Source: a plasmid
Length of the DNA stretch: 64,000 nucleotides
Sequence record: NZ_CP081674.1
Direction: 5' to 3' (one strand)
Positions 61,501 to 62,885 of this stretch are shown in pieces. Made by a program: the position numbers and the translations under genes. The notes under the pieces were generated by a model. That model saw only the letters and a list, made by a program, of their open reading frames with translations, did not search any database and had not been told where the DNA came from. Position 1 is the stretch's first letter. Every line of letters begins with the position of its first letter.

Positions 61501-62381
61501 CGTTGCGTATCCAGCCGAGCGAAGTCCTCAATGCCCAACAGGTCGTCCAGCCCCAGCGTTTTGGCTGTGCTCTCAACCGTCGTGCGAACGGTCGCATCCG
61601 GACGCCACCGAGCCATCCGACGGGCGATCGTGCGTGCCGCACTCTCACTCATCTGGTCGGGCACCGCGAACCGGGAGTCTCCGTAACGAATCAGTTCAGG
61701 ACTGACCACATACGTTGCGCGGAACTCCAACCCCTCTCCGCGCTCAGCAGCCAGGCGCATAAACGTCACTCCCGCAACGCCGTCGGCACGCGTAACCGTC
61801 TGCCATTCCCCCTGGTCGATGCTCTTTTGGTCGTTGATGACCAACCAGTGCGGCATCGCCGTCGAATCCTTGGCGAACTTCTCACGCTGATTGTGTAACT
61901 CTTCACCCATCGCCGCGTTGAACGCAGCGACCGAAGTCCACACCAAGCGCTGCGACCCACCGGTGTCCAACAACGTCGAATGCTGGCAGTGCGGCAACCA
62001 TTTCAACCACGACTCCCAACGCGAGACATCGTCGGTGATGACCATCACCTTCAAATCGCTGGGGGCATGAAACATCGTGGCCTGCAGAACAATCGACCGG
62101 ACCAACGCATATACCGCGTCCATGTGACCGTTCTCGCCGACCAGCGCCAGGCCAGGCGTAGAACGCAACGCCACCGGCTTGGCGATTCCGCGCACTTTGC
62201 GTTGAGTCCCCAAAAATCCGCTGATCGCCTGATAGGTGGTCGGCTCGTAGTCCGACGACCGACCCAAGGTCGGCAGCCCTTCAAACTTGCGCGACAGATC
62301 GCTGTTGCCGACTCCGAACCGCACAACACCGAACGTCGGATCCAACGAGGAGGGACGCCTCTGCTCCATTTGAGTTGCCAC
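58491..62381 (-). CDS. eccC: ESX FtsK/SpoIIIE-family ATPase EccC (body: DUF plus three ATPase domains)
   Basis: It has the Walker A motifs VLVGTTGSGKSEF and LGVGGAGKTVAIA, and a degenerate third motif IAGDPESGTTTAL. The ORF has a GTG start one codon after an in-frame TGA. Confidence 0.85.
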   Translation of the reverse strand: MATQMEQRRPSSLDPTFGVVRFGVGNSDLSRKFEGLPTLGRSSDYEPTTYQAISGFLGTQRKVRGIAKPVALRSTPGLALVGENGHMDAVYALVRSIVLQATMFHAPSDLKVMVITDDVSRWESWLKWLPHCQHSTLLDTGGSQRLVWTSVAAFNAAMGEELHNQREKFAKDSTAMPHWLVINDQKSIDQGEWQTVTRADGVAGVTFMRLAAERGEGLEFRATYVVSPELIRYGDSRFAVPDQMSESAARTIARRMARWRPDATVRTTVESTAKTLGLDDLLGIEDFARLDTQRLWSPTRSGPRFEDSPWGDQWLRFPIGRDDFGNVVAIDMKEDSDGGDGTAMVLVGTTGSGKSEFWTTLILSACLTHSPEMLNIMFFDFKGATTAQAIEHLPHVVAAQNNLRDDSLWMDRMCDVLYGELEIRKSLLSRARVGNAAEYEYRRIHKGEPLPPMPTLLLIIDEFTQMFLECPPALEVCDEIGRQGRALGVRLLMGSQRLGHEMDRGIMVNVPIRSALRTLDAADSRKVIGVEEAKYLPKKPGGAGYLLVPGKDLIKYQTAYVSGTYHRPRRVVATEEVRTKSGYAPPREFLLTGMEPIAAPVPANVASKVRDDEPDVIVGSDGRELRDVQVATKALQEQTAGMPPQRRRWLPPLAPLPVEELVNRLRGKPWHVDYGQNPDLLFPVGIEDRPFQHAQRVYALNLLNDNCGVLGVGGAGKTVAIATMLAGAAMMYTPQRVQFFVLAFSGSDINVVERLPHVASFARANERERVLRTLGELEALIDDRERAFGELGIGLREWRDRKFGGKQGEVPDDPYGDVFLVLDGWATFREQFEDNGVVTPLTRVVSIMTKGRSYGVHVILSAGGWINGKLLSGMSNLFSSNVELKLDQESDQLTHNKLEVAKQVPKGEVERKRDPDEVEDESGVASLGGAGELGEAAESEKVMIVGRGTSMAGYHFQTALPQVTIDGRVVEIDEAIEAVSGYMGAAGSEAKLRLLPSRVTLDAVFAQAEKNGQLSGQLVPFGISEVGLRPAVIDFLRASHLLIAGDPESGTTTALRTLARALMRLFDPAEVEIFVVDPQTKLAGVVDGPHLGSYEDLPAASQPDYLSIPTNFGAATAPPVEAALEVPGERHEGYVHRQDQVRSMAAHLAAELEKRKPSEKMTQAQIAAGIEWKGRQTFVIIDREELVHGWGGGNLSMAGHPLQPLVPYLPIAREVGLHVIVGRRITDWMRATGSPVISELLRMKAPGVVMSGSKGEGEILGGVKASKMPAGRGIYVGDRFTAPMQIAISEASPGDL

Positions 62382-62387
62382 TTCTCA

Positions 62388-62885
62388 GCTCTTCCTGCTT
62401 CGTTCCCACATCCGGTCTGAACCCACCAAACCCAACAGCTGGTTGGGCTCTGGATGCAGATACTTGAACTGGTTGAACTGGGCCTCGGCCGCCGCATGTA
62501 CTTCGTCACGCAACTCGTCGAGCTCGTGAAAATACTCGCGCCGTCGGTCCTCCATCTGGGCCGGCGTCAGCTGCTGGTTTTCTCCCACCCCACCAAACCG
62601 GTTACCCGCGAACATGTACACCATCGAGCCGATCATCATGATCGGAAACAGCAGCGAGAACACCGCCATCGGACCCTGTCTCAGTCCTGGCTGCGACATC
62701 ATCAAAGCGATCATCCCGATCACCGCCAGCCCCACAACCGCCGGAAGAATGATCTGAATCTTCGTCCGCGGTATCGGCCGGGGAGCCACCAACGGCTCCA
62801 ACGACGTCGGTACATGGATGGCTGCGCTACTGACCCCACGAGGCAGCTTAGGCTTCGGCCCAGGATTAAACCGCAACGTAGACAC
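62388..62885 (-). CDS. eccC: EccC N-terminal transmembrane segment (separated from the body by an in-frame TGA)
   Basis: It has the TM helices ILPAVVGLAVIGMIALMM and AVFSLLFPIMMIGSMVYMF, then RREYFHELDELRDEV...GSDRMWERSRKS, which matches the EccC N-terminus. It is in the same frame as the 1296-aa ORF. The start is GTG at 62885, 3 nt after the eccB stop. Confidence 0.6.

Follow-up and report, generated by a model that had tools for sequence, protein, structure and literature searches.

The 64,000-nucleotide window analysed here, a stretch of the plasmid sequence record NZ_CP081674.1, carries a mycobacterial ESX locus in which eccC, the gene for the motor ATPase of the type VII secretion system (T7SS), is divided by an in-frame TGA. 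It is highly probable that this TGA normally terminates a gene in its own right, that it goes back to an ancestral fission of eccC in one clade of plasmid-type mycobacterial ESX systems, and that the two halves reassemble as EccC. The split recurs in independent assemblies and is ancestral to a monophyletic clade, both genes are under purifying selection, and the Walker A and Walker B motifs of the first ATPase domain (D1) are intact. The initial annotation had listed four explanations without choosing among them; the one that stood is a genuine division into two genes at an unusual position, and a nonsense mutation, a sequencing error and a recoded or read-through stop did not.

Both parts of eccC are encoded on the minus strand. 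The upstream open reading frame (ORF), referred to here as the N piece, occupies 62385..62885 and encodes 166 amino acids (aa) followed by the TGA. It starts from GTG 62885-62883, 4 nucleotides (nt) past the eccB stop codon (TAG 62892-62890), and is preceded by a Shine-Dalgarno (SD)-like GGGAGGG (62899-62893). The N piece aligned to the transmembrane (TM) region of EccC5 and EccC3 and matched positions 4-130 of the EccCa profile TIGR03924 (NCBIfam). It has the N-terminal motif MSTxRFxPG and a pair of TM helices (aa 41-68 and 71-94, based on hydropathy). The earlier description of a split after the TM domain was approximate, as the N piece also holds a helix following the second TM helix and an HPEP...RMWERS segment.

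The downstream ORF, referred to as the body (58491..62381, 1296 aa from GTG 62381), encodes the domain of unknown function (DUF) and then three FtsK/SpoIIIE-like P-loop domains (D1-D3), without interruption through D1, D2 and D3 and without any hydrophobic segment in the hydropathy profile. The body matched positions 124-673 of TIGR03924 with 508.3 bits (cut-off 509.15), the absent first 123 positions being located on the N piece, and it matched the EccCb profile TIGR03925 with 510.7 bits. The catalytic motifs of D1 are intact (Walker A GTTGSGKS, 61340-61317; Walker B LLIIDE, 61013-60996), and the P-loop motif of D2 is GVGGAGKT (60251-60228). The P-loop of D3 is degenerate (GDPESGTTT, 59249-59223), and D3 is probably non-catalytic given that the Walker A lysine is missing.

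Across the gene junction (62379..62396) the minus strand reads TGG GAA CGA AGC AGG AAG AGC TGA GAA GTG GCA ACT CAA ATG GAG, and thus contains an SD-like AGGAAG (62396-62391), a serine codon (AGC), the TGA (62387-62385), GAA (62384-62382) and the GTG of the body (62381-62379). This agrees with the position originally assigned to the stop. Translation of 62885-58491 gave one internal stop only, confirming that the two ORFs share a frame and that no frame had been miscalculated; the prior chance of this is 1 in 3, so the in-frame state is unremarkable by itself. The stop-to-restart gap is 3 nt, the AGGAAG sits 9 nt upstream of the GTG inside the upstream gene, and no terminator-like or promoter-like site was found between the two ORFs. 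A body start at ATG 62369 was considered and rejected, as this codon is not conserved in two related loci (L085 and L086), whereas GTG 62381 is.

The window is 100% identical to a draft contig of Mycolicibacterium houstonense DSM 44676 (NZ_JACKVJ010000015.1), and a draft contig could in principle carry a sequencing or assembly error at this site. However, the junction was base-for-base identical in LT546210.1 (GCA_900078665.2), Logan SRR32331576 and Logan SRR15372744, where the 1296-aa ORF also adjoins the N piece, and the diverged loci L085 and L086 have the same TGA-NNN-GTG layout. Altogether 7 contigs, obtained from different samples, encode the identical 166-aa protein, and an identical copy of the 1296-aa protein has been recorded as well. 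Because the same junction was obtained in independent assemblies and sequencing runs, the stop is not a sequencing error, and we assign practically no probability to this explanation.

The NCBI annotation likewise has two intact genes and no pseudogene, with the N piece given as a "hypothetical protein" (WP_160110984.1) and the body as an "FtsK/SpoIIIE domain-containing protein" (WP_264077639.1/WP_066904196.1); M. farcinogenes and an isolate bearing the label M. abscessus have the same annotated gene pair. With the RefSeq starts, the N piece would be 134 aa long and the body 1284 or 1277 aa. These starts cut off the conserved N-terminal motifs MSTxRFxPG (N piece) and M-A-T-Q...PSSLDPxFG (body) and are probably too far downstream.

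One genome per species was scanned, yielding 80 EccC loci, and ORF boundaries were mapped on the first 46. Three classes were observed among the mapped loci. EccC is unsplit in L003, L006, L009-L013 and L022; it is split after the DUF, at ~370 residues (query 383|406), in L014-L021 and L023 and in a separate group, L024-L043; and it is split after ~166-171 residues, here called the TM-split, in the window (L002), Mycobacterium sp. MFM001 (L007), M. pinniadriaticum (L008) and a metagenome contig (L001). The metagenome contig is a Flye-type assembly with an extra frameshift in the body and is unconvincing alone, but the isolate genome of M. pinniadriaticum confirms the same arrangement. A search with the N piece revealed 18 clusters (90% identity) of stand-alone N pieces of 121-175 aa and 58-99% identity, from M. 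wolinskyi, M. heckeshornense, M. mageritense and several uncultured sources, and each of the full-length ones ends 1-13 residues past the conserved RMWERSR. The same holds for L001, L007, L008 and L085-L089, in which the N ORF stops 1-13 residues past RMWERSR and the restart is M-[AV]-T-Q; in L085-L089 the order is eccB, N piece, a body of ~1280-1297 aa and a helix-turn-helix (HTH) gene.

In a neighbour-joining tree of concatenated EccC sequences (1244 columns), the seven TM-split genomes were monophyletic with a bootstrap of 100/100, and their neighbours were unsplit and DUF-split lineages. The TM-split genomes have body identities of 61-95%, and unsplit relatives exist at ~50% identity. This distribution is most simply accounted for by one fission event in an ancestor. 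Searched exhaustively by phmmer against 1.84 billion representatives, the N piece had 189 matches, and no independent TM-type split outside the clade was found among them. Other short matches of 160-190 aa (e.g. P0109/L091) were rejected as candidates, because their sequence continues beyond RMWER to FGxVRxG and they resemble proteins cut short at a contig end or by an unrelated truncation.

In L090 (ENA ERZ25039463 contig_147311, positions 3893-10504), a Flye-type metagenome contig related to the split clade, eccB and the eccC body are fragmented into numerous short ORFs. Either true decay of this copy or indel errors in the long-read assembly could be the cause, and the contig was set aside.

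We also weighed the claim that a recent nonsense mutation pseudogenised the ATPase, in which case the ESX system would be dead or decaying. A lone in-frame stop within what is one ORF in most EccC homologues, together with the unsplit relatives, is what such a mutation would leave. The substitution pattern points the other way. Between the window and L082/L083, which share the stop, 89 of 4395 positions differ over both ORFs, and 82 of these changes are synonymous and only 7 non-synonymous; within the N piece all 4 differences are synonymous. We also calculated Nei-Gojobori dN/dS (omega) for pairs spanning dS 0.03 to 1.5. For the window, omega of the N piece and the body was 0.00 and 0.03 against L082, 0.22 and 0.05 against L085, and 0.10 and 0.09 against L086; for L001 versus L008 it was 0.03 and 0.10. 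More distant pairs (dS ~1, near saturation) gave 0.16-0.25 for the N piece and 0.14-0.27 for the body. At every divergence tested, omega was thus within 0-0.25 (N piece) and 0.03-0.27 (body, downstream of the stop), indicating that both genes are kept by selection while the stop is in place, and neither the relaxed selection (omega near 1) nor the lineage-restricted disruption of a pseudogene was observed. The age of the split (ancestral to a clade at 61-95% identity), the conserved restart codon and SD-like sequences at the junction, and the intact neighbouring ESX genes also argue against a pseudogene, which we consider extremely unlikely.

The junctions of the clade members differ in both frame and layout. 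In the window, L082, L085 and L086 the layout is TGA-NNN-GTG, NNN being GAA, GGC or CCA, with the body in the same frame. L087, whose N piece is 86% identical, has TAG TAG, 4 nt and then GTG, which places the body in frame +1. The start codon overlaps the stop by 4 nt (ATGA or GTGA) in L007, L088 and L089, and a spacer of 26-31 nt with GAGGGGG or AGGGGA before the ATG is found in L008 and L001; in all five the body is in a different frame. Across all junction genomes compared the body starts with M-[A/V]-T-Q or M-T-[QR], so the start site is homologous across the clade. With the stop and restart 0-31 nt apart, these look like ordinary translationally coupled operon junctions, the coupling itself being a prediction.

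This variation bears on programmed UGA read-through or recoding (with Trp, Sec or a near-cognate), by which a full-length 1465-aa EccC would be the functional form. The in-frame ORFs of M. houstonense, L085 and L086, with the TGA and only one codon between them, would permit it, yet the stop is in frame only in this one subclade, most relatives have the ORFs in different frames or a TAGTAG (the TAGTAG and frame change of L087, the overlaps of L007, L088 and L089, and the out-of-frame spacers of L008 and L001), and the codon after the TGA is not conserved. The RNA fold at the site was no more stable than that of shuffled sequence (z=0.35), with no unusual structure there, and the conserved restart codon and N-terminus favour independent initiation. 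Nor was there a conserved sense codon at this position in orthologues, which the initial annotation had proposed to look for: unsplit relatives have a short variable loop, and the split clade has an expanded, unconserved gene junction. Read-through as the source of the functional protein is thus very unlikely, and as the junctions of relatives differ in frame and layout, the in-frame arrangement in M. houstonense is incidental and no recoding signal. The split differs from that of ESX-1: it is a real two-gene split, ancestral to the whole clade, with the boundary before the DUF core.

To locate the cut in the protein, the query was aligned to M. tuberculosis EccC5 (7NP7) over residues 31-427 (E=2e-41). 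The alignment has a 13-residue insertion exactly at the junction, between RMWER (~152) of EccC5 and KPDGKDLNFGVVRVGVG; the EccC5 loop at the split site is short (KPDGKD) and is ~13 codons longer in the window. In the EccC5 DUF crystal construct (8RIN), residues 1-16 and 119-166 were kept, the latter as belonging to the DUF, and 17-118 (TM and stalk) and 167-198 (stalk) were swapped for linkers; the helices alphaA/alphaB and the betaA-betaB hairpin flank the DUF core and join the stalk (PMC11154593). In the ESX-5 structure, the stalk touches EccB and EccD, and the DUF touches the ubiquitin-like domain of EccD (PMC8232910). Judged from this comparison, the cut would not be at a clean domain border but inside the interdigitated stalk and DUF-flanking region, and for this reason the N piece and the body should pack against each other.

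Based on these observations, eccC was likely divided in the ancestor of the clade within the loop that links the conserved RMWER motif to the FGxVRxGxG strand. The product of the first gene would be the membrane part, comprising the N-terminal strand, the two TM helices, the first stalk helix and a helical (alphaA/alphaB-type) segment up to RMWERS, and that of the second gene the soluble motor, comprising the hairpin strand, the second stalk segment, the DUF core and D1-D3. The genes are likely co-transcribed within an eccB-eccC(N)-eccC(body)-HTH unit. As the stop and restart are within 0-31 nt, we infer translational coupling by termination and reinitiation, which would yield roughly equal amounts of both products. 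The two polypeptides would then reassemble non-covalently into a working EccC within the EccB/C/D/E complex, where the N piece would also be held by contacts with EccB and EccD, and the body by contacts between its DUF and the ubiquitin-like domain of EccD.

It could be argued that only one product matters, with the body working alone or borrowing the anchor of another EccC and the 166-aa ORF being a vestige. The N piece is small, and the "hypothetical protein" label and inconsistent starts given by PGAP (the Prokaryotic Genome Annotation Pipeline) fit such a view. However, conservation of the N piece is no weaker than that of the body (omega 0-0.25, and 4 synonymous versus 0 non-synonymous differences between strains) and is kept at the same position in every clade member, so a vestigial N piece seems very improbable.

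Several points weigh against two separately made halves that reassemble. Co-translation, stoichiometry and reassembly are all predictions from the sequence. The in-frame TGA-NNN-GTG is kept in three lineages of the houstonense subclade at 87-95% body identity, and low-level UGA read-through to a full-length protein is possible in this subclade, though it is not needed, given that junction layouts differ among relatives. The D3 P-loop lacks its lysine, though degenerate D2/D3 motifs are usual in EccC (PMC11154593). Lastly, when the first 431 residues of the fused sequence were modelled with AlphaFold2 (AF2) from a 13-sequence alignment, the model had a mean confidence score (pLDDT) of 47, falling below 50 over 114-244, and was unusable for placing the junction; because of this poor model, the structural placement rests on the EccC5 alignment and the published construct design.

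A more far-reaching idea is that the separation of the pore-forming TM hairpin from the DUF-D1-D3 motor is not neutral but a functional design, by which the soluble motor docks reversibly on a pre-assembled platform of EccB, the N piece, EccD and EccE. We consider this rather unlikely. If true, reversible docking would give plasmid-borne systems an on/off assembly step, for example during conjugation, and would show that the pore can open without force through a continuous EccC chain.

The surroundings of the two genes are those of a complete ESX locus, in which every ORF in the window is open based on Pfam matches and ORF translations. The gene order is eccB, the eccC N piece, the eccC body, HTH, PE, PPE, two WXG100-like genes, espG, a MinD/ParA-like ATPase gene, eccD, mycP and eccE, all on the minus strand. 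The 3' part of eccB (62890..63966) matched Pfam T7SS_ESX1_EccB over profile positions 148-472 (E=3e-81), and the gene extends beyond the window end, being 505-534 aa in related loci. The HTH regulator gene (57764..58501, Pfam LacI/HTH_3) has an 11-nt overlap with the end of the eccC body; its position is the same in all related loci, and the order eccB, N piece, body, HTH is found in L082-L089. The remaining block (47563..57581) comprises PE (57285-57581), PPE (55845-57251), the WXG100-like genes (55444-55743 and 55087-55383), espG (54029-55084), the MinD/ParA-like ATPase gene (52414-53952), eccD (50879-52417), mycP (49200-50984) and eccE (47563-49317). In EspG a 15-residue acidic segment, SAESDDQSTGELDEV, is present as two perfect tandem copies with one Pro between them (54506-54598, minus strand).

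Approximately 10-17 kb from the ESX locus are eccA (30089-31933), a gene for a VirB4-like AAA_10 ATPase (34101-36668, Pfam E=2e-23) and one for a TcpC-like protein whose match is weak and below the cut-off (37572-38555, E=4e-4), again on the minus strand; a 724-aa ORF without a Pfam match is located beside them within 30089-38555. The pairing of an ESX locus with type IV secretion system (T4SS)-like genes is known from conjugative plasmids of the pRAW type (PMC4173767). In these genes the window element resembles such plasmids, which need both T7SS and T4SS-like genes, and it may be of the pRAW type (ESX-P1 and T4SS-like; Ummels et al. 2014, PMC4173767). Both combine an ESX locus that includes a MinD/ParA-like gene with nearby genes for a VirB4-like ATPase and a TcpC-like protein, the latter only putative in the window; the window element differs in being a rapid-grower element and in the position of the eccC split. 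No close plasmid relative was found in PLSDB by blastn, with at most ~70% DNA identity to any entry; the same search revealed the annotation pattern "eccB / hypothetical / eccCb" in other plasmids.

Elsewhere in the window are two divergent pairs of overlapping tyrosine-recombinase genes (1931-5724, minus strand, 835 and 429 aa; 7822-11260, plus strand, 402 and 748 aa) flanking an HTH/IrrE-like (Peptidase_M78) gene at 6540-7796, and this region is possibly a mobile element of the recombinase-array kind, or else a module for integration. A metabolic cargo block (12194-28585) lies between the recombinase region and the secretion modules, including genes for alpha/beta hydrolases, enoyl-CoA hydratase, an M28 peptidase, flavin amine oxidase, fatty-acid hydroxylase and NAD-binding epimerase-like proteins.

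A second and more widespread fission of EccC was found after the DUF, with an N part of ~350-372 aa and a C part of ~970-1040 aa, in two separate clades (L014-L023 without the unsplit L022, and L024-L043). It is positioned at ~7050-7120 in each of those loci, and the parts in L092 are at 3350-4468 and 256-3360. One example is the complete MOBF plasmid of M. pseudoshottsii (NZ_CP155056.1), in which a 372-aa "hypothetical protein" is followed by a 1034-aa "EccCb". Such loci share with the window the order eccB, eccC N part, C part and HTH regulator, tight junctions (the ATG lies 8 nt ahead of the stop, or start and stop overlap as GTGA) and an N part labelled "hypothetical protein". They differ in that the cut is ~210 residues further downstream, the ~370-aa N part keeps the DUF, and the loci belong to other clades in the tree. 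Neither the TM/stalk split nor the DUF split was found described in the open-access literature searched, which included the pRAW paper, Dumas 2016, a review of T7SS variants, the EccC5 DUF paper and the ESX-5 structure; its coverage was incomplete, so this absence is not proof. The split in the window is thus a conserved EccC fission at a position without earlier description in the literature searched, and not a defect, a recoding event or gene decay. Annotation pipelines choose truncated starts and use no names more precise than "hypothetical protein" (N piece) and "FtsK/SpoIIIE domain-containing protein" (body), and surveys requiring a full EccC (TIGR03924 at cut-off) may overlook TM-split and DUF-split systems or score them as defective. 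The relevance of the finding is mainly for annotation and for structural and mechanistic work on T7SS.

A divided EccC is known from ESX-1, in which two genes (EccCa1/EccCb1) have their boundary between D1 and D2 (PMC11154593). The window resembles ESX-1 of M. tuberculosis (Rv3870/Rv3871) in that a pair of neighbouring genes is assumed to supply a single motor, and in that the surrounding ESX locus includes eccB, PE/PPE, an esx pair, a MinD/ParA-like gene, eccD, mycP and eccE. In ESX-1, however, EccCa1 keeps the TM region, the DUF and D1, whereas the window is cut before the DUF core, leaving a membrane piece of only 166 aa without a P-loop domain and a soluble 1296-aa protein with the DUF and all three ATPase domains. 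In T7SS structural models EccC is one chain, whose TM helices close the central pore and whose DUF and ATPase rearrangements are proposed to open the pore via the stalk. The single-chain EccC3 and EccC5 (PDB 6SGW/6SGX, 7NP7/7NPR and 7B9S; 8RIN) share with the window the domain order and the motifs HPxP...RMWER, FGxVRxGxG and WxKWLPH, but are made as one polypeptide, whereas the window EccC is encoded as two: the stop after residue 166 is conserved across the clade, and the TM anchor is not covalently joined to the DUF/ATPase chain. Because the whole clade is under purifying selection despite the cut chain, a continuous EccC backbone between the first stalk helix and the DUF core is likely not required, and this clade offers a natural two-part system for studying how the motor docks on, and gates, the membrane complex.

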